Source: TPA_inf: Saccharomyces (lineage: Eukaryota). From it: DNA of 64,000 nucleotides. Positions 32,987 through 53,827 of the stretch are shown one piece after another; the stretch's first letter is position 1; each line of letters opens with the position of its first letter. The position numbers and the translations under genes were made by a program. Under the pieces are notes generated by a model. The model did no database searches. It worked only from the letters and a program-made list of their open reading frames with translations, and was not told the DNA's origin. The stretch lies in assembly GCA_000146045.2 (NCBI GenBank), contig BK006948.2:928001-992000 (forward strand), in the 5' to 3' direction.

Positions 32987-35900
32987 ATGGATATTTCTAA
33001 ACCGGTTGGTTCTGAAATCACATCCGTTGATTTCGGGATCCTAACAGCTAAAGAGATTAGAAATCTATCAGCAAAGCAAATTACCAATCCTACGGTTTTA
33101 GATAACTTAGGTCATCCAGTATCAGGCGGTTTATATGACTTAGCCTTAGGTGCATTCTTAAGGAATCTGTGTTCTACTTGTGGTTTGGATGAAAAATTCT
33201 GTCCAGGTCACCAAGGTCACATTGAATTACCTGTCCCTTGTTATAATCCATTGTTCTTTAACCAGCTATATATTTATTTGAGGGCATCATGTTTATTCTG
33301 TCATCATTTCCGTTTAAAGTCAGTAGAGGTTCATCGTTACGCATGTAAATTGAGATTGTTACAATACGGTTTGATAGACGAATCTTACAAACTAGATGAA
33401 ATAACTTTGGGCTCTCTTAATAGCAGTATGTACACTGACGACGAAGCTATTGAAGATAATGAGGATGAAATGGATGGTGAAGGAAGCAAGCAATCAAAGG
33501 ATATTTCCTCCACTCTCTTAAATGAACTGAAAAGTAAGCGTTCAGAATATGTTGACATGGCCATCGCTAAAGCTTTGTCAGACGGCAGAACTACTGAGAG
33601 AGGCTCTTTCACAGCTACTGTAAATGATGAACGAAAGAAATTGGTCCATGAGTTTCACAAAAAACTATTATCTAGAGGTAAGTGTGATAACTGTGGTATG
33701 TTTTCGCCAAAATTTAGAAAGGATGGTTTTACAAAAATCTTCGAAACTGCGTTGAATGAAAAACAAATTACAAATAACAGAGTAAAAGGTTTCATTCGTC
33801 AAGATATGATTAAGAAGCAAAAACAGGCTAAGAAATTGGACGGTTCTAACGAAGCATCTGCAAATGACGAAGAAAGTTTTGACGTTGGTAGAAATCCTAC
33901 CACCAGACCAAAAACCGGCTCAACATATATTTTATCTACTGAAGTGAAGAATATTCTGGACACTGTTTTCAGGAAGGAGCAATGTGTTTTACAATATGTT
34001 TTTCATTCGAGACCCAATTTATCAAGAAAATTGGTCAAGGCTGACTCTTTTTTTATGGATGTTCTTGTTGTGCCACCAACTAGATTCCGTTTGCCTTCCA
34101 AGCTTGGTGAAGAAGTTCATGAAAACTCTCAAAACCAATTGTTGTCCAAGGTTCTTACTACGTCATTATTAATTAGGGACTTAAATGATGATTTATCTAA
34201 GCTACAAAAGGACAAAGTTTCTTTGGAAGATAGAAGGGTGATCTTCAGTAGGTTAATGAATGCCTTTGTTACTATTCAAAATGACGTCAATGCTTTTATC
34301 GACTCTACCAAAGCACAAGGTAGAACCAGTGGTAAGGTTCCAATTCCTGGTGTTAAACAAGCACTGGAAAAGAAAGAAGGTTTATTCAGAAAACATATGA
34401 TGGGTAAGCGTGTTAACTATGCCGCTCGTTCTGTTATTTCTCCAGACCCAAATATCGAAACTAATGAAATTGGTGTCCCACCTGTTTTTGCTGTTAAATT
34501 GACTTATCCAGAACCAGTAACGGCTTATAACATAGCAGAGTTGCGTCAAGCTGTTATTAATGGCCCTGATAAATGGCCAGGTGCCACTCAAATACAGAAC
34601 GAAGATGGTTCTTTGGTCTCTTTGATCGGTATGTCTGTAGAGCAACGTAAGGCATTAGCTAACCAACTATTGACACCATCTTCAAACGTTTCTACTCATA
34701 CTTTGAATAAAAAGGTTTACCGTCACATCAAGAACAGAGATGTTGTTTTAATGAACCGTCAACCGACCTTACATAAAGCCTCCATGATGGGTCACAAAGT
34801 TAGGGTGTTACCAAACGAAAAGACTTTGAGATTACATTATGCTAATACAGGTGCTTATAATGCAGATTTCGATGGTGATGAAATGAACATGCATTTTCCA
34901 CAAAACGAAAATGCTAGAGCAGAAGCACTAAACTTAGCTAATACTGATTCTCAATACTTGACACCAACTTCTGGTTCTCCAGTTAGAGGTTTGATTCAAG
35001 ATCATATTTCTGCGGGTGTTTGGCTAACAAGTAAGGACAGTTTTTTCACCAGAGAACAATACCAGCAATATATTTACGGTTGCATCCGTCCTGAGGATGG
35101 TCATACCACAAGATCGAAGATCGTTACCTTACCTCCAACTATCTTCAAGCCATATCCATTATGGACAGGTAAACAAATCATCACAACAGTTTTGTTGAAT
35201 GTCACCCCTCCAGATATGCCTGGTATCAATTTAATTTCTAAAAATAAGATTAAAAACGAATATTGGGGCAAGGGATCTCTGGAAAACGAAGTTCTCTTCA
35301 AAGACGGCGCATTGCTATGTGGTATTTTAGATAAGTCACAATACGGTGCCTCTAAGTATGGTATTGTTCATTCATTGCATGAAGTTTATGGCCCAGAAGT
35401 CGCTGCTAAAGTCTTATCCGTCTTAGGTAGACTATTTACCAACTATATCACTGCCACGGCATTCACTTGTGGTATGGACGATTTACGTCTAACAGCAGAA
35501 GGTAATAAATGGAGGACTGACATCTTGAAGACGTCTGTTGATACAGGTCGTGAAGCCGCTGCAGAAGTTACTAATTTAGATAAAGACACGCCAGCAGATG
35601 ACCCAGAGTTATTAAAGAGGCTACAAGAAATACTGCGTGATAATAATAAGTCAGGTATTCTTGACGCTGTTACATCCTCCAAGGTCAATGCTATTACTTC
35701 TCAAGTCGTCTCCAAATGTGTTCCAGATGGTACTATGAAAAAGTTTCCATGCAATTCTATGCAAGCTATGGCACTTTCTGGTGCTAAAGGTTCTAACGTT
35801 AATGTTTCTCAAATTATGTGTTTGTTGGGTCAACAAGCTTTAGAAGGTAGAAGAGTGCCGGTAATGGTTAGTGGTAAAACTCTGCCTTCTTTCAAACCTT

Positions 35901-37981
35901 ATGAAACAGATGCCATGGCTGGTGGTTATGTTAAGGGTCGTTTCTACTCTGGTATAAAGCCACAGGAGTATTACTTCCATTGTATGGCTGGTCGTGAAGG
36001 TTTAATTGATACGGCCGTTAAAACATCTAGATCCGGTTATTTGCAACGTTGTCTAACAAAACAATTAGAAGGTGTTCACGTATCATACGATAACAGTATA
36101 AGAGATGCAGATGGTACGTTAGTGCAATTCATGTATGGTGGTGATGCCATCGATATAACCAAAGAATCACACATGACTCAATTCGAGTTCTGTTTAGACA
36201 ATTACTACGCATTATTGAAGAAATACAACCCATCAGCACTGATTGAACATTTGGATGTTGAATCAGCTTTGAAGTACTCTAAAAAGACTTTGAAATACAG
36301 AAAGAAGCATAGCAAGGAGCCTCATTACAAACAGTCTGTAAAATATGATCCTGTTTTAGCTAAGTATAATCCTGCCAAATACCTGGGTTCCGTTTCTGAG
36401 AACTTCCAAGATAAACTAGAATCTTTCTTAGACAAGAACTCTAAATTGTTCAAATCATCGGATGGTGTTAACGAAAAGAAGTTCAGGGCCTTGATGCAAT
36501 TGAAGTATATGCGTTCTCTAATTAATCCAGGTGAAGCTGTTGGTATTATTGCTTCACAATCTGTCGGTGAACCCTCAACACAGATGACATTGAATACCTT
36601 CCACTTTGCTGGTCACGGTGCCGCTAATGTGACACTAGGTATTCCTCGTTTAAGAGAAATTGTTATGACTGCCTCTGCTGCCATTAAAACTCCGCAAATG
36701 ACTTTGCCTATCTGGAATGATGTTTCTGATGAGCAAGCTGACACTTTCTGTAAGTCTATCTCAAAAGTCCTATTATCCGAAGTGATAGATAAAGTGATAG
36801 TCACTGAAACTACCGGTACTTCAAATACCGCTGGTGGAAATGCAGCTCGTTCGTATGTTATCCATATGAGATTCTTCGACAATAATGAATACAGTGAAGA
36901 ATACGATGTTTCTAAAGAAGAATTACAAAACGTCATATCTAATCAATTCATACACTTGCTAGAAGCTGCTATTGTAAAAGAAATCAAAAAACAAAAGAGA
37001 ACTACAGGACCAGACATTGGTGTTGCAGTACCAAGGCTACAGACAGATGTTGCAAATAGTTCTTCGAACTCTAAAAGGTTGGAAGAGGATAATGATGAAG
37101 AACAAAGTCATAAGAAAACTAAACAAGCGGTTTCGTATGACGAGCCAGATGAAGATGAAATTGAAACTATGAGAGAAGCTGAAAAGTCTTCTGACGAAGA
37201 AGGTATCGATTCCGATAAAGAAAGTGATTCTGACTCTGAGGACGAAGACGTTGACATGAATGAACAAATTAATAAGAGTATTGTGGAAGCTAACAATAAT
37301 ATGAACAAAGTGCAGCGTGATCGTCAATCAGCGATTATTTCTCATCATAGATTCATCACCAAATACAATTTCGATGATGAATCTGGTAAATGGTGTGAAT
37401 TTAAGCTAGAATTAGCAGCAGACACAGAAAAGTTGTTGATGGTTAATATTGTTGAAGAAATCTGTAGGAAGTCTATCATTAGACAGATTCCTCATATTGA
37501 CCGTTGTGTTCATCCAGAACCTGAAAACGGAAAACGTGTCCTTGTCACAGAAGGTGTTAATTTCCAAGCTATGTGGGATCAAGAGGCATTTATCGACGTT
37601 GATGGTATTACATCTAATGATGTTGCTGCTGTGTTGAAAACGTACGGTGTAGAAGCTGCTAGAAATACTATTGTGAATGAAATTAATAACGTCTTCTCTC
37701 GTTATGCTATTTCTGTTTCTTTCCGTCATTTAGACCTTATTGCTGACATGATGACCAGGCAAGGTACTTACTTAGCCTTTAACAGACAGGGTATGGAAAC
37801 ATCCACTTCATCTTTCATGAAGATGTCCTATGAAACTACATGTCAATTCTTGACCAAGGCTGTTCTAGATAATGAGCGTGAACAATTGGACAGTCCTTCC
37901 GCTAGAATTGTGGTGGGTAAATTGAACAATGTTGGTACGGGTTCATTTGATGTGTTAGCAAAGGTTCCAAATGCGGCTTAG
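32987..37981 (+). CDS. RPA190: RNA polymerase I largest subunit, 1664 aa.
   Basis: It has the zinc-binding N-terminus (CSTCGLDEKFCPGHQGHIELP) and the catalytic aspartate triad motif NADFDGDEMN. A long acidic Ser/Asp/Glu insertion is present near aa 1350-1420. Confidence 0.94.
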   Translation: MDISKPVGSEITSVDFGILTAKEIRNLSAKQITNPTVLDNLGHPVSGGLYDLALGAFLRNLCSTCGLDEKFCPGHQGHIELPVPCYNPLFFNQLYIYLRASCLFCHHFRLKSVEVHRYACKLRLLQYGLIDESYKLDEITLGSLNSSMYTDDEAIEDNEDEMDGEGSKQSKDISSTLLNELKSKRSEYVDMAIAKALSDGRTTERGSFTATVNDERKKLVHEFHKKLLSRGKCDNCGMFSPKFRKDGFTKIFETALNEKQITNNRVKGFIRQDMIKKQKQAKKLDGSNEASANDEESFDVGRNPTTRPKTGSTYILSTEVKNILDTVFRKEQCVLQYVFHSRPNLSRKLVKADSFFMDVLVVPPTRFRLPSKLGEEVHENSQNQLLSKVLTTSLLIRDLNDDLSKLQKDKVSLEDRRVIFSRLMNAFVTIQNDVNAFIDSTKAQGRTSGKVPIPGVKQALEKKEGLFRKHMMGKRVNYAARSVISPDPNIETNEIGVPPVFAVKLTYPEPVTAYNIAELRQAVINGPDKWPGATQIQNEDGSLVSLIGMSVEQRKALANQLLTPSSNVSTHTLNKKVYRHIKNRDVVLMNRQPTLHKASMMGHKVRVLPNEKTLRLHYANTGAYNADFDGDEMNMHFPQNENARAEALNLANTDSQYLTPTSGSPVRGLIQDHISAGVWLTSKDSFFTREQYQQYIYGCIRPEDGHTTRSKIVTLPPTIFKPYPLWTGKQIITTVLLNVTPPDMPGINLISKNKIKNEYWGKGSLENEVLFKDGALLCGILDKSQYGASKYGIVHSLHEVYGPEVAAKVLSVLGRLFTNYITATAFTCGMDDLRLTAEGNKWRTDILKTSVDTGREAAAEVTNLDKDTPADDPELLKRLQEILRDNNKSGILDAVTSSKVNAITSQVVSKCVPDGTMKKFPCNSMQAMALSGAKGSNVNVSQIMCLLGQQALEGRRVPVMVSGKTLPSFKPYETDAMAGGYVKGRFYSGIKPQEYYFHCMAGREGLIDTAVKTSRSGYLQRCLTKQLEGVHVSYDNSIRDADGTLVQFMYGGDAIDITKESHMTQFEFCLDNYYALLKKYNPSALIEHLDVESALKYSKKTLKYRKKHSKEPHYKQSVKYDPVLAKYNPAKYLGSVSENFQDKLESFLDKNSKLFKSSDGVNEKKFRALMQLKYMRSLINPGEAVGIIASQSVGEPSTQMTLNTFHFAGHGAANVTLGIPRLREIVMTASAAIKTPQMTLPIWNDVSDEQADTFCKSISKVLLSEVIDKVIVTETTGTSNTAGGNAARSYVIHMRFFDNNEYSEEYDVSKEELQNVISNQFIHLLEAAIVKEIKKQKRTTGPDIGVAVPRLQTDVANSSSNSKRLEEDNDEEQSHKKTKQAVSYDEPDEDEIETMREAEKSSDEEGIDSDKESDSDSEDEDVDMNEQINKSIVEANNNMNKVQRDRQSAIISHHRFITKYNFDDESGKWCEFKLELAADTEKLLMVNIVEEICRKSIIRQIPHIDRCVHPEPENGKRVLVTEGVNFQAMWDQEAFIDVDGITSNDVAAVLKTYGVEAARNTIVNEINNVFSRYAISVSFRHLDLIADMMTRQGTYLAFNRQGMETSTSSFMKMSYETTCQFLTKAVLDNEREQLDSPSARIVVGKLNNVGTGSFDVLAKVPNAA

Positions 37982-39625: not shown

Positions 39626-40991
39626 TTTTTCTTTTCTATCGAAAAATGCAGGAAACAAGCTTGTATTTAGCGATGCTGTATTAATGTAAATTGGCTAATA
39701 GGGACGCCACTACCATAGATGAGCAATAGATTCGTAATATCAACCTCAAGAAAACTCATTAGGAGCAAGAAATGAAAAGTAAAAAAATGGTTGAAAGTAA
39801 AATCCATGCAATGAGATAAGGAAGAGAAAACTAATGAAAAAAATTTTTCAATTAAGGCATGGAAGGATCTTGAAATGAAGTGAAAGGAAAAATGGAAAAA
39901 CATGAAAAACTACACAAGCAAAGACCAGCATTATGGATGAAATTTTTTTTTTTTTTTCACGTCAGAAGTTAAGGCCATCTTTGAGTTCCAGGGTATCGCA
40001 TCTCAGGTCTTCCCACTTATGCTACGCATTCATGAAAATTTTTCAACTTTTTCTTTTGACCGTGGTGAAAGAAGATGCGCGTTTATGGGGAGAAAACCCG
40101 TAGAAAACGCGAAAAGCCGCTGAAAATACAAAGGGAAAAAGCCGCTCTCATTTCTTATTTAGGAAAAGAAATGAGCGGGGTAAACGGAGATCGCTGCGGA
40201 CGGAAGGCGCGAAATACCCACTGCCCTGAAGTCCAGCAGGTACTGAGGCTTGGATCTCAAAAGCGTGGGGTGCGTGGGCGTGCGCTGCTCGAGGCATTTT
40301 AGCCGCTGATAGTGCTGGCTCCAGGGGCCACTGCGCTTGCCATACCCGCACACGGGGTTCTTTGAGGCACTTAATTGACCGGAGATTTAAACGATATTGT
40401 CGTCGGGGATTAGAAGACATTACTGGTGGGGAACCCTTGATGATAATAGGAAATATATGCGCAGTATGCTCCATCGCTACGAGATGTTAGCAGCCTCAGA
40501 GCATCCTAATGGGAATATCAATGCATACACACCGGAGCTTGGATATGATAAACGAAATATTCTTGAATCGTGAGATCGCCTGTTTTCAAAACCGTTGGAG
40601 GCAGAAACAATTTTGTCACAAGATGGGCATTCTACCCCATCCTTGCTGTATTATTGTAGTCTCGCTTTCTTTTATGCTGGACAAATGAGACTACTGCACA
40701 TTTTTATACGTTCTTGGTTTTTTTTAAAGGTGTGGTTTCGGCATTATCCTGCCGCACGTTTCTTGGATAATTCATCCTGATTCTCTATTTTAAACGCTTC
40801 AGCCTATCAGGATTTGGTTTTGATACATACTGCAAGAGTGTATCTCGGGAACAGTCATTTATTCCGCAACAAACTTAATTGCGGAACGCGTTAGGCGATT
40901 TCTAGCATATATCAAATACCGTTCGCGATTTCTTCTGGGTTCGTCTCTTTTCTTTTAAATACTTATTAACGTACTCAAACAACTACACTTC

Positions 40992-41302
40992 GTTGTATCT
41001 CAGAATGAGATCCCTCAGTATGACAATACATCATTCTAAACGTTCGTAAAACACATATGAAACAACTTTATAACAAAGCGAACAAAATGGGCAACATGAG
41101 ATGAAACTCCGCGTCCCTTAGCTGAACTACCCAAACGTACGAATGCCTGAACAATTAGTTTAGATCCGAGATTCCGCGCTTCCATCATTTAGTATAATCC
41201 ATATTTTATATAATATATAGGATAAGTAACAGCCCGCGAATCAAGCTGGTAATCCGTTTTGACAGCTGGTTGCTTCCCCAAGACTGCTTATATTAGGATT
41301 GT
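40992..41302 (+). repeat. Sigma (Ty3 LTR) fragment, 5' about 310 bp. It begins GTTGTATCTCAGAATGAGAT and is truncated before the canonical ...TACAACA end.
   Basis: It shows strong similarity to the sigma consensus (TGTTGTATCTCAAAATGAGAT...CTGAACAATTAGTTTAGATCCGAGATTCCGCGCTTCC...). Confidence 0.7.
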
Positions 41303-41334
41303 TGAAAATATTGATTAACTTTTGTTAATTCCTA

Positions 41335-41510
41335 CATACTCGGGGAAAGGTTCTAGTATATTCTGTATACCTAATCTTACAGTCTTTACTAATGGAATCC
41401 CAGGAATTATCAAAAAATTCACCTATCTTTCAAAATATTACTATTCACTCTGCTAAGATTATCGGAATAGGGACCAACTATCATCCGCTAATTACTGACA
41501 TTACCAAATG
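41335..41510 (+). repeat. Ty1/Ty2 delta LTR fragments. A delta 3'-end piece (...TTCTAGTATATTCTGTATACCTAAT...AATGGAATCCCA...) is followed by a diverged delta 5'-start-like piece.
   Basis: This is my alignment by eye to the delta consensus. It is fragmentary and diverged. Confidence 0.5.
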
Positions 41511-42286
41511 AGATCTGTGAATGGGCAAGATAAAAAACAAAAATTGAAATGTTTGACGTTATGTAAAACTATTAATTCCTTCGCTTTCGGCGGTCACAGA
41601 ATTTGCGTGTAGCTGACTCTTGTTCAATCAATATCATTTGTTACTTTATTTGAAAGTCTGTATTACTGCGCCTATTGTCATCCGTACCAAAGAACGTCAA
41701 AAAGAAACAAGATAATTTTTGTGCTTACACCATTTATAGATCACTGAGCCCAGAATATCGCTGGAGCTCAGTGTAAGTGGCATGAACACAACTCTGACTG
41801 ATCGCACATATTGCCGTTATCATAAATACTAGTTGTACTTGTCAATGCGACGAATGGCATCATGCCTATTATTACGTTCCTCTTTTTCCGTTTCATGTTT
41901 CCAGAATGCTATTGAATCTAACACTTCAATTATAAAAAAGAATAAATCCGCAATAATTTTAGGCTAATTGTTGTACTGTCAAGCGAACCTAATGGTTAAA
42001 ATTCAGAGGAACCTTCGACGTAGTCTGATCGCTACTTCTATATCTTATGTTCCCAGTCAATCAAAAGTTGATACTATAATAGCTGCCATTTATACCTGTT
42101 AGTTATGGCGATCGTTTATCACGACAAGCCCAATTTTGGTCGAGATGCAGCCAGTTGCCATCTATTGTTTCCAAAGCATTCGTTTGATTCGTATATGATA
42201 GGAAAACAAATTAAACGATGTATCAATTTGCTCATTCATCATAAATTGTGTTTGAGGCATTACTAAAAGAGCAGCAGATATCAGTC

Positions 42287-42618
42287 TGTTGGAATAAAAA
42301 TCAACTATCATCTACTAACTAGTATTTACGTTACTAGTATATTATCATATACGGTGTTAGAAGATGACGCAAATGATGAGAAATAGTCATCTAAATTAGT
42401 GGAAGCTGAAACGCAAGGATTGATAATGTAATAGGATCAATGAATATTAACATATAAAACGATGATAATAATATTTATAGAATTGTGTAGAATTGCAGAT
42501 TCCCTTTTATGGATTCCTAAATCCTCGAGGAGAACTTCTAGTATATCTACATACCTAATATTATAGCCTTAATCACAATGGAATCCCAACAATTACATCA
42601 AAATCCACATTGTCCACA
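42287..42618 (+). repeat. Ty2 5' LTR (delta), 332 bp, with TG...CA termini. The TYA ATG at 42578 lies inside it.
   Basis: It starts TGTTGGAATAAAAATC and ends CCACA, immediately followed by the primer-binding site. Confidence 0.9.
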
Positions 42619-43894
42619 TGGTAGCGCCTATGCTTCGGTTACTTCTAAGGAAGTCCCATCAAATCAAGATCCGTTAGCCGTTTCAGCTTCCAATTTACCG
42701 GAATTTGATAGAGATTCCACTAAGGTTAATTCTCAAGAAGAGACAACACCTGGGACATCAGCTGTTCCAGAGAACCATCATCATGTCTCTCCTCAACCTG
42801 CTTCAGTACCACCTCCACAGAATGGACAGTACCAACAGCACGGCATGATGACCCCAAACAAAGCTATGGCTTCTAACTGGGCACATTACCAACAACCATC
42901 TATGATGACGTGTTCACATTATCAAACGTCACCTGCGTATTATCAACCGGACCCACACTATCCGCTGCCACAGTATATCCCACCGCTGAGTACTTCCTCA
43001 CCTGATCCAATCGATTCACAGGATCAACACTCTGAAGTACCTCAAGCTAAGACAAAGGTGAGAAATAATGTCTTACCACCACACCCACACACATCAGAAG
43101 AAAACTTTTCTACATGGGTTAAATTTTACATCAGATTTTTGAAGAACTCTAATCTCGGTGACATTATTCCAAATGACCAGGGTGAAATCAAAAGACAAAT
43201 GACTTATGAAGAACATGCGTATATATACAATACCTTCCAAGCATTTGCCCCATTTCATTTATTGCCAACATGGGTAAAACAAATTTTAGAAATTAATTAT
43301 TCTGACATCCTTACAGTCCTTTGTAAAAGTGTGTCCAAAATGCAAACTAACAATCAAGAATTAAAAGATTGGATAGCTCTTGCCAACCTTGAGTACAACG
43401 GAAGTACATCTGCTGATACATTTGAAATTACAGTCAGCACGATCATTCAAAGGCTAAAAGAAAACAATATCAATGTTAGCGACAGATTGGCCTGTCAACT
43501 AATACTTAAAGGTCTATCCGGTGATTTCAAATACCTACGTAATCAATATCGTACCAAAACGAACATGAAACTTTCCCAATTATTCGCTGAAATTCAATTA
43601 ATATATGACGAAAATAAAATCATGAATCTAAATAAACCGTCCCAATACAAACAACACAGCGAATACAAAAATGTTTCTCGCACATCTCCAAACACGACTA
43701 ACACGAAGGTTACAACTCGTAATTATCATAGAACAAATAGTTCAAAACCAAGAGCAGCAAAAGCTCACAATATTGCTACATCCAGTAAATTCTCAAGGGT
43801 GAACAATGATCACATTAATGAATCAACCGTTTCATCACAATACTTAAGCGATGACAACGAACTTAGTCTTAGGCCAGCAACAGAAAGAATCTAA
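42578..43894 (+). CDS. TY2A: Ty2 TYA (Gag), 438 aa.
   Basis: It has an ATG within the 5' LTR. The sequence [23 protein letters not shown]... is the characteristic Ty Gag N-terminus. Confidence 0.9.
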
Positions 43895-46800
43895 GCCAAC
43901 ACGCACAATAGACTCGAATGACGAACTACCTGATCACCTTCTTATTGATTCAGGAGCTTCGCAAACGCTTGTCAGATCAGCCCATTATTTACACCATGCA
44001 ACACCCAATTCTGAAATAAACATAGTCGATGCTCAAAAACAAGACATTCCTATAAATGCCATTGGTAATCTTCACTTCAACTTTCAGAACGGCACCAAAA
44101 CATCAATAAAAGCACTACACACACCAAACATAGCCTATGATCTATTAAGTTTGAGTGAGCTGACTAACCAAAATATTACTGCCTGCTTTACCAGAAACAC
44201 TTTAGAAAGATCGGATGGTACAGTACTAGCTCCCATAGTCAAACATGGAGACTTTTACTGGTTATCTAAAAAATACCTAATTCCTTCGCACATTTCAAAG
44301 CTAACAATAAACAACGTCAACAAAAGCAAAAGCGTAAATAAATATCCATATCCGTTAATACATCGAATGCTTGGACATGCTAACTTCCGAAGTATTCAGA
44401 AGTCTCTTAAGAAGAATGCAGTTACATATTTGAAAGAATCGGATATTGAATGGTCTAACGCTAGCACATATCAATGTCCTGACTGTCTAATCGGCAAAAG
44501 CACGAAACATAGGCATGTCAAAGGATCACGACTAAAGTACCAAGAATCATATGAGCCTTTTCAGTACTTGCATACCGATATATTTGGTCCTGTACATCAC
44601 TTACCGAAAAGTGCACCTTCTTACTTTATATCGTTTACAGATGAGAAAACCAGATTCCAATGGGTGTACCCATTACACGACCGTCGTGAAGAATCTATCC
44701 TCAATGTTTTTACATCGATATTAGCATTTATTAAGAACCAATTCAATGCTCGCGTTCTAGTTATCCAGATGGATCGTGGCTCCGAGTACACTAACAAAAC
44801 TCTTCATAAGTTCTTTACGAACAGAGGTATTACTGCATGCTATACAACCACGGCAGATTCTAGAGCACACGGTGTCGCTGAACGATTAAATCGTACTTTA
44901 TTAAACGATTGTCGCACACTGCTTCATTGCAGTGGTCTACCAAATCATCTATGGTTCTCAGCAGTCGAATTTTCTACTATAATCAGAAATTCATTAGTCT
45001 CACCAAAAAACGATAAATCTGCAAGACAACATGCAGGTTTAGCTGGACTGGACATTACTACTATACTACCTTTCGGTCAACCGGTTATAGTTAACAACCA
45101 TAATCCTGACTCGAAAATACATCCTCGTGGCATTCCAGGTTACGCCTTACATCCATCACGAAACTCTTATGGCTATATTATCTATCTTCCATCCTTAAAA
45201 AAGACAGTAGATACTACCAATTACGTTATATTACAAAACAATCAAACGAAATTGGACCAGTTCGACTACGATACACTCACTTTTGATGATGATCTCAATC
45301 GTTTAACAGCCCATAACCAATCTTTTATTGAACAAAATGAAACGGAGCAGTCATATGATCAAAATACAGAATCTGATCATGACTATCAATCGGAGATTGA
45401 AATAAACTCTGATCCTCTAGTGAACGATTTCTCGTCCCAATCATTGAACCCTTTACAATTAGACAAGGAACCAGTCCAAAAGGTACGTGCACCAAAAGAA
45501 GTTGATGCCGACATATCTGAATACAATATTCTTCCATCTACTATACGATCTCGTACACCCCATATCATTAATAAAGAGAGTACCGAAATGGGTGGTACCA
45601 TTGAATCAGATACTACTTCACCTAGACACTCGTCTACCTTCACTGCACGAAACCAAAAGCGACCTGGTAGTCCCAACGATATGATTGATTTGACCTCACA
45701 GGATAGAGTTAATTATGGACTTGAAAACATCAAAACTACACGTTTGGGTGGTACGGAGGAACCATATATTCAACGAAATAGTGATACAAATATCAAATAC
45801 AGGACTACAAACAGTACGCCCTCAATAGATGACCGTTCGTCCAACAGTGACTCCACTACTCCCATCATCTCCATAGAAACAAAGGCTGCATGTGATAATA
45901 CACCCTCCATTGATACGGATCCGCCAGAATATCGCTCTTCTGACCATGCGACTCCTAATATAATGCCTGACAAATCCTCAAAAAATGTTACGGCTGATTC
46001 TATTCTTGACGACCTCCCACTTCCTGACTTAACCCATAAATCTCCTACGGACACTTCTGATGTTTCAAAAGATATCCCACACATACACTCTCGTCAGACT
46101 AATTCCAGTTTGGGTGGTATGGATGATTCTAATGTTCTGACTACTACCAAAAGTAAGAAAAGATCATTAGAAGATAATGAAACTGAAATTGAGGTATCCC
46201 GAGACACATGGAATAATAAGAATATGAGAAGTCTGGAACCACCAAGATCGAAGAAACGCATAAATTTAATTGCAGCAATAAAAGGAGTGAAATCGATCAA
46301 ACCAGTTCGAACGACCTTAAGATATGATGAAGCAATTACATATAATAAAGACAACAAAGAAAAAGACAGATATGTTGAAGCTTATCATAAAGAAATTAGC
46401 CAACTATTGAAAATGAACACTTGGGATACAAACAAATATTATGATAGAAATGACATAGATCCTAAAAAAGTAATAAACTCAATGTTTATATTTAACAAGA
46501 AACGTGATGGTACACACAAAGCTAGATTTGTTGCAAGAGGCGACATTCAACACCCCGATACATATGATTCTGATATGCAATCCAATACCGTACATCACTA
46601 TGCACTGATGACGTCATTGTCAATCGCATTAGACAATGACTATTATATCACACAGCTGGACATATCCTCTGCTTACTTATATGCTGATATCAAAGAAGAA
46701 TTATACATAAGACCTCCACCACATTTAGGTTTGAATGATAAGTTACTACGTTTGAGAAAATCACTCTATGGTTTGAAACAAAGTGGTGCAAACTGGTATG

Positions 46801-47891
46801 AAACCATTAAATCATATTTAATAAATTGTTGCGACATGCAAGAAGTTCGCGGATGGTCATGCGTATTTAAGAATAGTCAAGTAACAATTTGCTTATTCGT
46901 TGATGATATGATATTATTCAGCAAAGACTTAAATGCAAATAAGAAAATCATAACAACACTCAAGAAACAATACGATACAAAGATAATAAATCTGGGTGAA
47001 GGTGATAACGAAATTCAGTACGACATACTTGGATTAGAGATCAAATATCAAAGAAGCAAGTACATGAAATTAGGTATGGAAAAATCCTTGACAGAAAAAT
47101 TACCCAAACTAAACGTACCTTTGAACCCAAAAGGAAAGAAACTTAGAGCTCCAGGTCAACCAGGTCATTATATAGACCAGGATGAACTAGAAATAGATGA
47201 AGATGAATACAAAGAGAAAGTGCATGAAATGCAAAAGTTGATTGGTCTAGCTTCATATGTTGGATATAAATTTAGATTTGACTTACTATACTACATCAAC
47301 ACACTTGCTCAACATATACTATTCCCCTCTAGGCAAGTTTTAGACATGACATATGAGTTAATACAATTCATGTGGGACACTAGAGATAAACAATTAATAT
47401 GGCACAAAAACAAACCTACCAAGCCAGATAATAAACTAGTCGCAATAAGCGATGCTTCATATGGTAACCAACCATATTACAAGTCACAAATTGGTAACAT
47501 TTTCCTACTCAACGGAAAAGTGATTGGAGGAAAGTCGACAAAGGCTTCGTTAACATGCACTTCAACTACAGAAGCAGAAATACACGCAGTCAGTGAAGCT
47601 ATACCGCTATTGAATAACCTCAGTCACCTTGTGCAAGAACTTAACAAGAAACCAATTATTAAAGGCTTACTTACTGATAGTAGATCAACGATCAGTATAA
47701 TTAAGTCTACAAATGAAGAGAAATTTAGAAACAGATTTTTTGGCACAAAGGCAATGAGACTTAGAGATGAAGTATCAGGTAATAATTTATACGTATACTA
47801 CATCGAGACCAAGAAGAACATTGCTGATGTGATGACAAAACCTCTTCCGATAAAAACATTTAAACTATTAACAAACAAATGGATTCATTAG
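42578..47891 (+). CDS. TY2B: Ty2 TYA-TYB (Gag-Pol) fusion of 1770 aa, made by +1 ribosomal frameshifting: join(42578..43870, 43872..47891). It encodes protease, integrase and reverse transcriptase/RNase H.
   Basis: The frameshift heptamer CTTAGGC is at the TYA/TYB overlap. Integrase motifs (HHCC ...H...H...CPDC, and DD35E) and the RT YVDD motif (LFVDDM) are seen. Confidence 0.88.
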
Positions 47892-47913
47892 ATCTATTAC
47901 ATTATGGGTGGTA

Positions 47914-48245
47914 TGTTGGAATAAAAATCAACTATCATCTACTAACTAGTATTTACGTTACTAGTATATTATCATATACGGTGTTAGAAGATGACGCAAA
48001 TGATGAGAAATAGTCATCTAAATTAGTGGAAGCTGAAACGCAAGGATTGATAATGTAATAGGATCAATGAATATTAACATATAAAACGATGATAATAATA
48101 TTTATAGAATTGTGTAGAATTGCAGATTCCCTTTTATGGATTCCTAAATCCTCGAGGAGAACTTCTAGTATATCTACATACCTAATATTATAGCCTTAAT
48201 CACAATGGAATCCCAACAATTACATCAAAATCCACATTCTCCACA
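47914..48245 (+). repeat. Ty2 3' LTR, 332 bp.
   Basis: It is identical to the 5' LTR except for one base (G versus C near the 3' end). It is preceded by the polypurine tract. Confidence 0.9.
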
Positions 48246-48255
48246 CAGTCATACT

Positions 48256-48345
48256 CGTAAGAATTGGTTGAATTTGAGATAATTGTTGGGATTCCATTGC
48301 TGATAGCTTTAATATTATGTATAAGGAATATACTAGAAATTCCGA
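48256..48345 (-). repeat. Delta LTR 3'-end fragment in inverse orientation.
   Basis: The sequence tgagataattgttgggattccattgctgatagctttaatattatgtataaggaatatactagaa is the reverse complement of a delta end (...CAATGGAATCCCAACAATTATCTCA). Confidence 0.6.
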
Positions 48346-48405
48346 AAACTGCTTATATCAAGACTTCAAGGAATCTGGTATTACTCGAGCCCGTAATACA
48401 ACACG
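48346..48405 (+). repeat. Sigma (Ty3 LTR) 3'-end fragment ending ...GGTATTACTCGAGCCCGTAATACAACA, 15 bp upstream of the tRNA-Met 5' end.
   Basis: It is an exact match to the sigma 3' terminus. The spacing to the tRNA matches the position-specific Ty3 integration site (16-19 bp). Confidence 0.7.
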
Positions 48406-48420
48406 TTTGATATTTTGTGC

Positions 48421-48493
48421 GCTTCAGTAGCTCAGTAGGAAGAGCGTCAGTCTCATAATCTGAAGGTCGAGAGTTCGAACCTCCCCTGGAGCA
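48421..48493 (+). tRNA. tM(CAU): Elongator tRNA-Met (anticodon CAU), 73 nt, no intron.
   Basis: It has a cloverleaf with anticodon loop CTCATAA and the T-arm/B-box GGTCGAGAGTTCGAACCTCC. A poly-T Pol III terminator follows immediately. It differs from the initiator tRNA sequence. Confidence 0.9.
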
Positions 48494-51817: not shown

Positions 51818-52170
51818 TGAGTATTTGAATCATCTACATCGCACCCAAAGAAATTTGATATCGTATAATTCAGCATATTATTATATACTGTGTAAAAAGA
51901 TGACATGGGAATTAAGAAACAATCATCAGATTTAGTGGATGCCGCAATACAAGGACTGATAATGTAAAGAAATAAAAGAGAACGCGACACAAAATGCAAG
52001 GAAAAATAATAAATGTTACGTAGAAATATCGGTTTCCTTTCCTTGATTTCTATATCTTAGTAATGAACTTCAAGAATATGCTTATTTTACCCAATTATAG
52101 CTTTAATCATCAATAGGATCTTAAAAATTATTCTAATATCCACCGAATTTTCGAAAAGTATACTAATTTA
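51818..52170 (+). repeat. Old, highly diverged delta-like LTR remnant.
   Basis: The segments ...agatgacatgggaattaagaaacaatcatcagatttagtggatgccgcaatacaaggactgataatgtaa... and ...cgtagaaatatcggtttcc...cttcaagaatatgc...caattatagctttaatcatcaatagg... align by eye to the delta consensus at roughly 70% identity. Confidence 0.45.
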
Positions 52171-52259
52171 AACATTTGGTGTAAGCGTTTAGGTTGCTAA
52201 CGTAGCAGCAAACGTTGGTATCAATCACCACTTATTGCGCTACATTTCAACAATGTTCT

Positions 52260-52591
52260 TGAGAAATGGGTGAATGTTGAGATAATTGTTGGGATTCCAT
52301 TGTTGATAAAGGCTATAATATTAGGTATACAGAATATACTAGAAGTTCTCCTCGAGGGTCTAGGAATCCCCATAATGGAATCTATATTTCTATATACCAA
52401 TATTACGATTATTCCTCATTCCGTTTTATATGTTTCATTATCCTATTACATTATCAATCCTTGCACTTCAGCTTCCTCTAACTTCGATGACAGCTTCTCA
52501 TAACTTGTGTCATCATCTTAACACCGTATATGATAATATATTGATAGTATAACTATTAGTTGATAGACGATAGTGGATTTTTATTCCAACA
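52260..52591 (-). repeat. Intact solo delta LTR (Ty1-type), 332 bp, flanked by the 5-bp target-site duplication GTTCT at 52255-52259 and 52592-52596.
   Basis: Its reverse complement runs TGTTGGAATAAAAATCCACTATCGTCTATCAACTAATAG...CAATGGAATCCCAACAATTATCTCAACATTCACCCATTTCTCA. Perfect direct repeats flank it. Confidence 0.88.
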
Positions 52592-52682
52592 GTTCTCTTC
52601 AACCATTCGTTTTTGGGACTGAGGAAAATGAATATAAAATTATAATACTTCATCTTGAACTTTGAGAAATCACAAATTGTAT

Positions 52683-52787
52683 GGGCGTGTGGTCTAGTGG
52701 AATGATTCTCGCTTTGGGCGATCCCCCTGATCAAACAGGAGGAACAAAGCATGCGAGAGGCCCTGGGTTCAATTCCCAGCTCGCCCC
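52683..52787 (+). tRNA. tP(UGG): tRNA-Pro (anticodon UGG) with a 33-nt intron at about 52719-52751; the mature tRNA is 72 nt.
   Basis: Exon 1 is GGGCGTGTGGTCTAGTGGAATGATTCTCGCTTTGGG, with anticodon TGG. Exon 2 is TGCGAGAGGCCCTGGGTTCAATTCCCAGCTCGCCCC. A T7 terminator follows. Confidence 0.88.
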
Positions 52788-53827
52788 TTTTTTTGCAACT
52801 TCGTTTTAGACAGTTACTTAATTTTGTTTCTTAGGCACAACAATATTTATAAAAGAAGAATGTAAGTATGACGACGAAAACGAAAAGACTAATAGTTTCA
52901 TATAATACTAAACGATTTCAATTTTCGTTTTATATCCTTCCTATTCATAAATTTTATTTCGCTATGCCAATAATGAGTGGATGTATAGTTGATATCTGTT
53001 TCGATAATTTTAAAGTAGATAGTAAAATCTTACTGACATGAATAATCCGTCCAAAACTAGATTACTGTATACAAGCATATTTAAAAAAATAATGAAACTA
53101 TGATCAAAAAACTGTGCTACTACAGCGGTGTTGTTATCCGATACAACCGGATATTTTTCTTTTAATGAGTCTAAACCGTGATAGCTTCAGGTTAATACAA
53201 TCAAAAAAAGCTCAAATATTCTTTTAATGCCGCGTTCACAGATTCCAATTGAATACAACTAGGTAGTTCATTATATGAAGCCTTTGCTACTATTTTTCAC
53301 TATAGTCTGCCTTCACCTTAATGCAGACATCCACATATTTTAATCACTTTAAAATAAAAAGGAAGATATATTAGAAGCTATGATCCAATCTGTAAGCCAG
53401 ATTAAAATTCACGAACTCTTCTTTCATTTGAATTGAATGCTTTGAGTTGGGGTAGATTATCGCAAATTACTCATCACATTTATTGACTACGAACTTGCTG
53501 ATGTCCTTTTTTTATTTATATTTTTCTTCAGTGAAGCGATTTTTTTTTTACACAGACCAAGACGGAAAAAAGTAGCTAAGGAAGAAAACAAAATCATGAA
53601 AAAAATGTGAAGTGATCATGCACATCGCATCAACTTAAACATTGGCTTAGAGATATATAGAGTTAGAGTTTACGGCAACCTTTAAGCACCAATACCTTTT
53701 GGCATAGTCTAAAGACCTGGTTCTTAATTTTAAACAAATTTAACTAAAGATTTCCCTATCAAAGAAGTAACGAGTTGACAGATTTTCTCAAAATAAATCG
53801 ATACTGCATTTCTAGGCATATCCAGCG

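Follow-up and report, generated by a model that had tools for sequence, protein, structure and literature searches.

Results

The Ty cluster upstream of tRNA-Met

The window analyzed here is a 64-kb stretch of chromosome XV of Saccharomyces cerevisiae S288C that holds RPA190, YOR343C and REV1, with exact matches obtained for these three genes as well as for the Gag protein of Ty2-OR2. The tRNA-Met (CAU) gene lies at 48421-48493 on the forward strand, following the sigma sequence as the initial annotation had it, and was recovered both by ARAGORN and by the Rfam tRNA model (62.5 bits); it is of the elongator type and, as a Pol III gene, is what draws the insertions here. An intron-containing tRNA-Pro(UGG)-type gene is located at 52683-52787 on the same strand, where only the intron mode of ARAGORN finds it, with matches to its exons in the outgroups; in S. 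mikatae its orientation is opposite. The comparison of the locus covered 26 further S. cerevisiae assemblies that could be interpreted, together with four other Saccharomyces species, namely S. paradoxus (CBS432), S. mikatae, S. kudriavzevii, and S. uvarum.

The locus is a Ty pile-up 5' of tRNA-Met that has been annotated before, and overall it is mostly known already. Carr, Bensasson & Bergman 2012 (PMC3511429, Files S2/S3), in fact, described one split Ty3 LTR around YORWdelta22, YORWTy2-2 and an inverted delta. In their coordinates, which equal window positions plus 927,997, the sigma pieces at 968989-969299 and 976337-976400 are joined as chrXV_s397+_TY3, that is YORWsigma4, of the TY3 inactive clade, with Ty2 at 970284-976238, YORWdelta22 (st201 TY1) at 969300-969429 and the inverted delta (chrXV_st202-_TY1) at 976257-976336. 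Carr et al. classed the sigma and both deltas, the inverted one included, as fixed and Ty2 as polymorphic, the latter being found in 5/17 SGRP strains. What is new here is that the 0.87 kb left "unassigned" is ordinary DNA that is inverted and comes from the tRNA-Pro side, and that the sigma end adjoining the tRNA is chimeric, combining sequence from two separate Ty3 insertions. The picture of a Pol III-gene hotspot with nested Ty insertions, drawn in the initial annotation, agrees with the elements found and with the published record; every element listed there exists, far beyond chance, and several of the boundaries are corrected below.

The Ty2 element, YORWTy2-2, occupies precisely the positions first given to it (42287-48245, forward strand). 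It is full-length (5959 bp), its 332-nt LTRs (42287-42618 and 47914-48245) are identical at 331/332 positions, and the target-site duplication CAGTC is present on both sides (42282-42286 and 48246-48250). The TYA reading frame (42578-43894) and the TYB frame (43851-47891), with Pfam TYA, RVT_2, and rve domains, overlap at 43851-43894, and the +1 frameshift heptamer CTTAGGC lies inside this overlap at 43868-43874; we take these reading frames to be YOR343W-A/B. The Gag sequence agrees exactly with that of UniProt Q12293, Transposon Ty2-OR2 Gag. The element is absent from 26/26 other assemblies, and one of them (L002) carries the exact, uninterrupted empty site with one CAGTC. This Ty2 is intact and young, and it was inserted within the block of DNA hereafter called X.

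Delta fragments and the relocated block X

X is bracketed by two delta (Ty1-type LTR) fragments whose natural 3' ends face it and whose truncated ends join the sigma at LTR positions ~302 and ~277. The first, YORWdelta22, is a 3' fragment of ~130 nt at 41304-41433 on the forward strand; over 41306-41439 the identity to the solo delta at 52252-52389 is 76%, and YORWdelta22 is 74% identical to the Ty2 LTR. The second is an inverted 3' fragment of ~81 nt on the reverse strand, at about 48262-48342 rather than at 48256-48345 as proposed earlier, which matches the same solo delta at 86% over 48262-48305 (to 52265-52308) and at 80% over 48297-48342, and is 72% complementary to 41351-41442. In S288C the loss of 26 nt between AAGAATT and GAGAATT has shortened its terminus, compared to another strain (L003) that shows the natural terminus TGAGA. 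The delta sequence initially reported over 41335-41510 is genuine within 41304-41433, but its last part, 41434-41510, belongs to X. A second delta at these positions was considered and rejected, as only 31 nt at 77% resemble a delta 5' end, and the segment was assigned to X because it is collinear with the spacer of S. paradoxus as well as with the in-place copy of S. cerevisiae described below.

The earlier annotation had left about 780 bp unassigned. The stretch is not Ty-derived, and its extent needs correcting: X is unique DNA amounting to 864 nt between the sigma pieces, 853 of them at 41434-42286 and the last 11 beyond Ty2 at 48251-48261, as the S. paradoxus alignment continues past the Ty2 site to 48261. 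X lies on the reverse strand, inverted relative to its ancestral site 3' of tRNA-Pro, and had no matches to the Ty2 internal region. It aligns, inverted and collinear, with positions +337..+1158 after tRNA-Pro in S. paradoxus CBS432 (76.8% over 869 columns, E=0), and its segment 41785-42267 aligns, also inverted, with +386..+863 after tRNA-Pro in S. kudriavzevii (65.6% over 497 columns, E 1e-41). The 77% identity to S. paradoxus compares with 80-81% for the flanking orthologous spacers. The ancestral site is the tRNA-Pro-to-REV1 spacer, ~4 kb from the present place. Upstream of tRNA-Met, X is absent in all four of the other species, and therefore it is not ancestral intergenic DNA in situ; TYE7 and YOR342C are separated by 2005 nt in S. 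kudriavzevii and by 2180 nt in S. uvarum, compared to ~2156 nt in S. cerevisiae when 40991-48403 is left out of the count. The refuting outcome named in the initial annotation, that the stretch might prove to be conserved intergenic DNA, was accordingly not obtained in that form; X is ordinary DNA with an orthologue 3' of tRNA-Pro. By its alignments X is relocated chromosomal DNA, not Ty, and nearly all of the S. cerevisiae sampled carry it.

Across the 64-kb window and the 20-kb loci, the only other copy of any X sequence is an in-place one of ~170 nt at 52861-53031 on the forward strand (41432-41592 is 73% identical to the inverted 52872-53031). The ~0.9 kb that precedes this copy in S. paradoxus is missing from the S. 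cerevisiae spacer; ~0.65 kb of it survives in X, and ~255 nt (S. paradoxus +82..+336) are missing at both S. cerevisiae sites. For the ~170 nt, the p-distance is 0.28 between the in-place and relocated copies, 0.26 between the in-place copy and S. paradoxus, and 0.16 between the relocated copy and S. paradoxus, with 32 private differences in the in-place copy compared to 14 and 11 in the other two. The branch of the in-place copy is, in this respect, unexpectedly long. The source boundaries carry no delta remnant, whether in S. paradoxus or in the spacer that S. cerevisiae keeps in place. Inspection of the delta/sigma joins by eye suggested 1-4 nt of possible microhomology (TTC/TTCC at ~48340, and 1-2 nt at 41303) between sequences that are old and diverged.

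The old sigma

The left piece of YORWsigma4, here called sigma A, spans 40991-41303 on the forward strand, one nucleotide more on either side than the 40992-41302 given initially, and is 88% identical to positions 2-302 of the YILWTy3-1 LTR, with 12 gap positions; the reference sequence was taken from File S4 of Carr et al. Membership of sigma A in the Ty3p family of S. paradoxus (TY3_1p) was considered and rejected, the identity to the Ty3p LTR being 78% with 38 gap positions. The piece is found in 24/26 interpretable S. cerevisiae assemblies. Its first base in S288C is C, not T, so that it starts with CGTTGTAT where other strains have TGTTGTAT.

The A-type 3' part covers 48340-48384 on the forward strand, running from Ty3 LTR position 277 to the motif GGTATTAC (48377-48384), and it is the same as the A-type 3' remnant of other strains except for 2 to 3 substitutions. 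The longer segment 48338-48403 aligns to positions 277-340 of the YILWTy3-1 LTR with 85.5% identity. Both pieces cover LTR reference positions 277-302, an overlap of 26 nt, whereas the simple split of one sigma would give a duplication of only 5 nt. Both sigma/delta joins fall between internal LTR positions and are non-homologous, not integrase joins. The variant ACTGCTTATAT noted from the outset is indeed present in both pieces in place of the consensus ACTGTTTATAT; in the Ty3/Ty3p superfamily alignment of Carr et al. ACTGCTTATAT occurs 3 times and ACTGTTTATAT 26 times, and 2 of the 3 occurrences are the two pieces of YORWsigma4 themselves. Judging from these comparisons, both pieces are of one old Ty3 lineage, not of Ty3p. 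The flanks of sigma A, CACTT and CGTTT, are identical at 3/5 positions in this old element, and no orthology was detectable between 40897-40990 and the outgroup DNA upstream of tRNA-Met.

The chimeric sigma end and the young sigma B

The terminal 19 nt of the sigma, TCGAGCCCGTAATACAACA (48385-48403, forward strand), are the same as in canonical Ty3 and in sigma B, a sigma of 341 nt that is ~98% identical to the YILWTy3-1 LTR, has CGTTT on both sides, and is found in 10 assemblies, in all of them 17 nt from tRNA-Met. The authentic end of sigma A is ACGAAGCCGTAAAAAGACA, which differs from 48385-48403 at 5/19 positions and is kept in 13 assemblies, again 17 nt from tRNA-Met. The inverted termini of the Ty3 LTR, TGTTGTAT and ATACAACA, are matched, and the S288C 3' end ATACAACA (48396-48403) is derived from sigma B, whereas the authentic terminus of sigma A reads AAAAAGACA and is degenerate. 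Among the compared assemblies the chimeric end is seen only in the S288C window and in L002, the strain with the empty Ty2 site. Because the sigma ends at 48403 and not at 48405, the gap to tRNA-Met is 17 nt, not 15, and what had been described as a sigma terminus at 48346-48405 is rather ~48340-48403; the accompanying claim of a canonical Ty3 distance stands, since ~16-19 nt are expected for Ty3. The spacer, CGTTTGATATTTTGTGC (48404-48420), includes the CGTTT that is the target duplication of sigma B elsewhere. One further assembly (L008) has a single mosaic A/B sigma, with the whole 1.1-kb block gone and X missing at both sites, so that its arrangement is a secondary deletion. The comparison across strains and with S. 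paradoxus advocated in the initial annotation has yielded the relocation of X, sigma B, the chimeric end, and the empty Ty2 site.

Discussion

Our results suggest that the locus was built up in layers, by an old Ty3, the relocation of X, a young Ty3, the loss of sigma B and finally Ty2, and we give this history as a whole a probability of roughly 80%. The first step, for which the evidence is direct, was the integration of an old Ty3 17 nt upstream of tRNA-Met, leaving sigma A. About the time of the S. cerevisiae/S. paradoxus split, X (~0.87 kb) then arrived in sigma A in inverted orientation. The outcome of this second step can be read from the alignments, and its mechanism is the least certain part of the history: we infer that X most likely moved by a duplicative replication or break-repair template switch between the LTR clusters of the two tRNA genes, after which the source site underwent a deletion. 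The natural delta ends found at X, however, would be explained equally well by ordinary Ty1 integrations into a relocated segment that was once larger, followed by deletions. In the third step, documented in other strains, a young Ty3 re-used the -17 position and survived as the solo sigma B with its CGTTT. The chimeric end suggests, as a fourth step, that the lineage of S288C lost sigma B through recombination with the sigma A remnant within GGTATTAC, a motif common to both; alternatively, the end of the sigma A remnant might have been converted by a Ty3 LTR, which would produce the same chimeric terminus. Last, and very recently, Ty2 integrated inside X, as directly evidenced by its empty site in L002.

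Much of this layered history has parallels in known systems. Ty3 integrates position-specifically at Pol III transcription start sites (reviewed in PMC5911963), and the locus conforms to this in the 17 nt that separate sigma from the 5' end of the mature tRNA, in a site that was used twice, and in the 5-bp CGTTT of sigma B, with the difference that the tandem re-use is visible only in other strains, whereas the window keeps just a 19-nt trace of it. The published annotation of Carr et al., in turn, includes neither the second sigma of other strains nor the chimeric 3' end; it leaves blank the stretch 969430-970283 that we assign to X, and its alignment shows the sigma overlap as an internal insertion, the two pieces being treated as one LTR. 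The hybrid A/B sigma end of S288C, as well as the mosaic sigma and the 1.1-kb loss in L008, resemble the products of LTR-LTR recombination. It is well known that such recombination makes solo or hybrid LTRs and deletes the DNA between them. The exchange in S288C, however, differs from the classical process in having occurred in ~8 nt of identity (GGTATTAC) within 60-nt stretches that are ~80% similar, and is closer to a microhomology-mediated deletion or a short gene-conversion tract.

As for the move of X, Payen et al. 2008 (PMC2518615) reported YORWsigma4 as a recurrent endpoint of break-induced replication, with microhomology/microsatellite-induced replication near tRNA genes that stall forks, and tied tRNA-induced stalling to template switching. 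X shares with those events its non-homologous joins, a duplication of 26 nt in the recipient, here sigma, and a portion of the donor that is now present twice. The events of Payen et al., however, were direct duplications of 41-655 kb obtained in the laboratory, whereas X is an inverted insertion of 0.87 kb that became fixed in nature and is about as old as the species, for which the mechanism is inferred.

The strongest competitor of the layered history, which we consider less likely although it deserves attention, holds that the sigma pieces stem from the two LTRs, 5' and 3', of a single ancient Ty3, once full-length, whose internal region was replaced or deleted. Two LTRs truncated independently would be expected to show an overlap such as that at 277-302, both joins to delta are illegitimate, and a rare variant would be shared because an element starts out with two identical LTRs. 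Neither piece, on the other hand, has Ty3 internal sequence, a primer-binding site or a polypurine tract beside it; within the overlap the two copies are quite different beyond a shared 14-mer, and a template switch that re-enters the sigma upstream of its exit would give the same overlap.

We find it improbable that X moved without duplication, through two overlapping inversions between opposite LTRs of the tRNA-Met and tRNA-Pro clusters, the first flipping tRNA-Met through X and the second flipping back everything except X. Such inversions would have an inverted transposition between LTR/tRNA clusters as their net result, with LTR fragments at both new junctions and a source site without most of the moved DNA, and the opposite orientation of tRNA-Pro in S. 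mikatae indicates that inversions do happen at this locus. Reciprocal inversions, however, give no duplication, and ~170 nt of X are present at both sites; the source breakpoints carry no LTR remnant, in place or in S. paradoxus; ~255 nt are gone from both sites; and the delta ends do not point the way that a simple exchange between LTRs would leave them.

More improbable still is that a solo sigma was split by nested Ty1/Ty2 insertions alone, with all that lies between the pieces Ty-derived or of unknown origin, as in the REannotate model. The joining of the two pieces by Carr et al., with the TY1/TY2 features nested in them, supports this reading, as do their common Ty3 family and the rare ACTGCTTATAT. 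As a complete account, however, it is already contradicted by the 864 nt of unique non-Ty DNA between the pieces, with an orthologue 3' of tRNA-Pro in two species, by an overlap of 26 nt instead of 5, by sigma/delta joins at internal LTR positions, and by terminal 19 nt that come from a different sigma. The idea of one element broken up by Ty1/Ty2, put forward in the initial annotation, retains the common old Ty3 lineage of the pieces, but has to give way to the relocation of X, the overlap, and a foreign terminus. Finally, that the 0.85 kb always lay upstream of tRNA-Met, with a 5' sigma that is unrelated, non-canonical or transported, might be suggested by the lack of recognizable Ty internal sequence in the block and by its near fixation in the sampled S. 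cerevisiae, but is already contradicted by outgroup synteny and is virtually untenable, as four species lack a homologue there, two have the block 3' of tRNA-Pro in the opposite orientation, and the intergenic lengths of S. kudriavzevii and S. uvarum match that of S. cerevisiae without it.

X itself received further DNA. Some strains, the sake strain K7 among them, have an extra insert of ~1.4 kb within X, which is flanked by a duplicated part of X and encodes an ORF of 193-323 aa, whose only relatives found outside S. cerevisiae were a Torulaspora globosa protein (45% identity) and a protein from assemblies of sequencing reads (39% identity). It is tempting, though doubtful, to see in tRNA/LTR clusters of this kind landing pads on which non-Ty DNA arrives repeatedly. 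If both arrivals took the same route of replication or template switching at a Pol III gene that stalls forks, the locus would illustrate, in nature, a way for foreign or ectopic DNA to get into the chromosomes of yeast.

Locus and published annotation

Exact matches to RPA190 (32987-37981; a 1664-aa ORF identical to the yeast protein), REV1 (53828-56785; a 985-aa ORF, likewise identical), YOR343C (40151-40474; 108 aa) and UniProt Q12293, "Transposon Ty2-OR2 Gag" (42578-43891; 438 aa), were found, and the window is therefore the S288C reference, right arm of chromosome XV. Adding 927,997 to a window position gives the coordinate in the sacCer2-based re-annotation of Carr, Bensasson & Bergman 2012 (PMC3511429, Files S2 and S3), where the nest upstream of tRNA-Met is already annotated. 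It lists YORWsigma4 (chrXV_s397+_TY3), a solo Ty3 LTR in two fragments (968989-969299 and 976337-976400) fixed in 36/36 strains, with three nested elements, namely the TY1 element YORWdelta22 (st201; 969300-969429; fixed, 23/23), the TY2 element YORWTy2-2 (i13; 970284-976238; polymorphic, 5/17) and a further TY1 fragment (st202-; 976257-976336; fixed, 16/16), and it leaves 969430-970283 blank (PMC3511429).

All the elements of the initial annotation (sigma pieces, delta, Ty2, inverted delta, tRNA-Met) were recovered, with some boundaries moved. The delta fragment placed at 41335-41510 exists but extends from 41304 to 41433, and 41434-41510 belongs to a non-Ty block; the sigma 3' end, put 15 bp from the tRNA, stops at 48403, leaving a gap of 17 nt that is still the canonical Ty3 distance. 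The tRNA-Met(CAU) gene (48421-48493) was called by both ARAGORN and Rfam, and is the sole Rfam match over the window.

An intron-containing Pro(UGG)-type tRNA gene lies at 52683-52787. It was missed by default ARAGORN and at the Rfam gathering threshold, and recovered only in ARAGORN intron mode, labelled Ala(tgc) or Pro(tgg) according to intron placement. Just upstream is a second LTR cluster, with delta fragments at 51872-52177 and an inverted solo delta at 52259-52592. The tRNA-Pro gene has the opposite orientation in S. mikatae (L011), and in S. kudriavzevii (L013) an inverted sigma-like LTR ends 18 nt upstream of it; this gene is therefore a rearrangement and Ty3-type target in relatives as well.

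Origin of the unassigned stretch

The non-Ty block, here called X, comprises 41434-42286 and, beyond the Ty2, 48251-48261. Loci from other genomes were retrieved via the neighbouring TYE7 protein, and yielded 27 full-length S. cerevisiae loci in addition to S. paradoxus CBS432 (L017), S. mikatae, S. kudriavzevii and S. uvarum. One S. cerevisiae locus (L023), a candidate for a full-length Ty3 replacing the block, is not interpretable, as its assembly has 201 Ns there, which left 26; the introgressed L016 was also set aside for the haplotype tally, which left 25.

Nothing similar to X was found upstream of tRNA-Met in any of the four other species. TYE7 lies 2005 nt from YOR342C in S. kudriavzevii and 2180 nt from it in S. 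uvarum; in S. cerevisiae the distance would be about 2156 nt once 40991-48403 is subtracted. The sequence of 41432-42286, continuing past the Ty2 site to 48261, corresponds in inverted orientation to +337 to +1158 after the tRNA-Pro gene of S. paradoxus, in the spacer between this intron-containing gene and REV1 (76.8% identity over 869 columns), and the match covers every base of X. Similarly, 41785-42267 inverted matches +386 to +863 after tRNA-Pro in S. kudriavzevii (65.6% over 497 columns, E 1e-41). These inverted matches are collinear in order. X is thus, judging by sequence comparison, ordinary unique spacer DNA, inverted and lying about 4 kb left of its ancestral place. It is not ancestral intergenic DNA of the tRNA-Met upstream region, the form in which such a finding would have told against a single split sigma. 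The proposed comparison across strains and relatives largely ordered the layers of the nest, and traced X to the spacer 3' of tRNA-Pro.

The in-place spacer of S. cerevisiae (52788-53827) is without the equivalent of about +76 to +985 of S. paradoxus, and resumes with a stretch of about 170 nt (approximately 52861-53031) that is hence present in two copies in S. cerevisiae; about 255 nt (S. paradoxus +82 to +336) have been lost from both sites. A Ty origin for the roughly 780 bp was rejected, as they show no similarity to the internal region of the window's Ty2 and their only LTR match is the delta fragment at the left edge. No ORF of at least 100 aa was found within X.

Within X, a tract of about 100 nt (41868-41968) sets apart two haplotype classes of S. 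cerevisiae (L010, L027, L034 and related loci), which disagree there at 29 of 97 sites but by just 1-6% in the flanks; the divergent version stands at about the same distance from S. paradoxus. A small inversion was rejected by eye; gene conversion from a paralogous copy since lost could account for the tract.

Sigma pieces and delta fragments

Aligned to the YILWTy3-1 LTR, as given in Carr et al. 2012, the 5' portion of the old Ty3 LTR YORWsigma4 (here sigma A; 40991-41303) corresponds to positions 2-302 with 88% identity, and its 3' piece to positions 277-340. X is flanked by two mutually inverted delta fragments (72% complementary over 92 nt), each with its natural 3' terminus facing X and its truncated end adjoining an internal sigma position. 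The left delta joins sigma at LTR position ~302 and the right delta at ~277, and the sigma pieces therefore overlap by 26 nt of LTR. An LTR split by integrase would leave just a 5-nt duplication. It may be that one solo LTR was left and re-entered 26 nt upstream by template-switching repair, or the pieces may be both LTRs of one full-length Ty3, each trimmed on its own; no Ty3 internal sequence survives at the locus to separate these readings. In the alignment of Carr et al. (PMC3511429) the overlap is drawn as an internal insertion with a second ACTGCTTATAT, and their annotation embodies the same interpretation as the initial one, a single split sigma, which needs amending for the overlap and for the chimeric terminal 19 nt.

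Membership of the old sigma in Ty3p was rejected, as was an 8-nt microhomology (AGGATTGT/AGAATTGT) at the left sigma/delta join, which hinged on a Ty2-type LTR and failed against the better-matching Ty1-type delta. Against the sequence immediately 5' of tRNA-Met in S. paradoxus and S. kudriavzevii, 40897-40990 aligned with scores no higher than those of shuffled sequence.

At the junction of X and the inverted delta there is an indel polymorphism of 26 nt (48251-48275 against the reverse complement of L003, 8683-8730), between the direct repeats AAGAATT and GAGAATT; in the S288C allele the natural TGAGA terminus of the delta is gone. Because this indel is common to haplotype groups that differ in the status of a second, younger sigma (sigma B), its distribution suggests recombination between haplotypes.

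Sigma 3' ends among strains

Four types of 3' end were seen in the window and the 25 interpretable, non-introgressed loci. An authentic sigma A end (...CTGGTATTACACGAAGCCGTAAAAAGACA, then CGTTTGATATTTTGTGC, then the tRNA) is present in 13 assemblies. Another 10 carry the old end, with minor variants, followed by CGTTT, a complete 341-nt sigma B about 98% identical to the YILWTy3-1 LTR, and CGTTT again. The window and L002 have an A/B chimera, A-type through GGTATTAC (48377-48384) and then TCGAGCCCGTAATACAACA (48385-48403); these last 19 nt are exactly those of sigma B, with mismatches to the authentic A end at 5 of the 19. Read most simply, the S288C ancestor carried sigma B until recombination between it and the remnant of sigma A, over some 8 nt of shared sequence, removed it; alternatively, another Ty3 LTR would have converted the end ectopically over a short tract.

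The fourth type (L008) has lost the block and retains one mosaic sigma, A-type for about the first 85 nt, B-type in the centre, with an A-type patch (ACTGCTTATATTAGGATTGTT) and a B-type end. It was rejected as the ancestral pre-insertion state given this mosaic; X is missing at both sites, including the part otherwise kept near tRNA-Pro, and L008 is therefore a secondary deletion.

In L016 (GCA_000976965.3), also S. cerevisiae, the DNA from RPA190 (1665 aa) as far as roughly the LTR cluster at tRNA-Pro resembles that of S. paradoxus (81-85% identity with the window), and sigma A and X are both absent; from tRNA-Pro on, identity with the window is 98.4%. This is an introgression, with its boundary inside the Ty cluster (51889-52651).

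Ty2 and other insertions in the zone

The Ty2 was correctly placed at 42287-48245. It measures 5959 bp, is flanked by CAGTC on both sides, encodes TYA, RVT_2 and rve domains with a CTTAGGC frameshift heptamer within the TYA/TYB overlap, and has 332-nt LTRs identical at 331/332 positions, so that it is the youngest layer of the nest. None of the 26 other assemblies carries YORWTy2-2, and L002 has an exact empty site with a single CAGTC.

In L028, an extra full-length Ty1-like element (only 71-84% identical to the internal region of the window's Ty2) adds one more independent insertion to this 1-kb zone, and extra LTR fragments lie between X and the inverted delta. In five loci (L024, L029, L026, L030 and L031, the last being K7, GCA_000260735.2), part of X is duplicated in tandem on either side of about 1.4 kb that the window lacks (in L024 and L029, about 1697-3080 nt beyond 40600, where the mapping flank begins), and three of these strains also have an extra inverted solo delta. 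The insert encodes an ORF of 193-323 aa (in L029 at 12236-13204) with no Pfam match. Apart from a cluster of accessory S. cerevisiae proteins, the relatives found are limited to one protein of Torulaspora globosa (45% identity) and one unnamed protein of sequencing-read assemblies (39% identity).

Discussion

X is 77% identical to S. paradoxus and its flanking orthologous spacers are 80-81% identical, so that X has been evolving within the S. cerevisiae lineage about as long as its flanks. Over the 167 ungapped columns of the duplicated part, p-distances are 0.28 between the in-place and relocated copies, 0.26 between the in-place copy and S. paradoxus, and 0.16 between the relocated copy and S. 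paradoxus; private changes are most numerous in the in-place copy (32, against 14 and 11 in the other two). Allowing for the error of an alignment this short, the duplication is about the age of the species split. Since the same four junctions are common to all S. cerevisiae haplotypes carrying X, a single origin of the arrangement is indicated.

Ty3 targeted the -17 position twice, the Ty2 integrated with a 5-bp duplication, and the sigmas recombined, removing DNA. As for X itself, its move would have been a duplicative template switch from one LTR/tRNA cluster to the other, driven by replication or break repair, after which DNA was lost at the source site. We favor this mechanism because part of X is duplicated, the recipient sigma is shortly duplicated, and both outer joins are non-homologous. 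Experimental precedent exists at the same LTR: in Payen et al. 2008 (PMC2518615), 115-kb duplications formed by break-induced replication ended recurrently at YORWsigma4, and microhomology-induced replication took place near tRNA genes that stall forks. Two points speak against a single clean event. Natural delta ends adjoin X, which fits ordinary Ty1 integrations into a once-larger relocated piece, trimmed later by deletions, and the junctions are too old for microhomology to be established. Two successive LTR-mediated inversions would yield the same gene order, but would account neither for the 170 nt in two copies nor for a source site free of LTR scars.

Accumulation of Ty elements at a Pol III gene is textbook yeast biology, and this nest, already known and annotated, in itself changes nothing. 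The new details (a relocated spacer, a sigma whose pieces overlap and whose end is chimeric, and the haplotypes seen across strains) are incremental, since rearrangement at Ty/tRNA sites and recombination between LTRs are both familiar; their value is practical and, for evolution, modest. The blank 969430-970283 of the reference annotation can be filled as the relocated, inverted and partly duplicated REV1 upstream spacer. The age of YORWsigma4 may be misjudged, as phylogenies and age estimates take it for one LTR; an overlap of 26 nt inside it, and 19 terminal nt derived from a far younger element, can distort such estimates. Finally, the locus is highly polymorphic: strains vary in whether they have sigma B or the Ty2, the block can be missing, and an accessory ORF can be flanked by partial duplications. 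Many papers in metabolic engineering and synthetic biology use YORWdelta22 (41304-41433) for chromosomal integration, and this structural polymorphism could affect homology-arm design there in non-S288C strains; it matters also because YORWsigma4 serves as a model endpoint for segmental duplication (Payen et al. 2008, PMC2518615).
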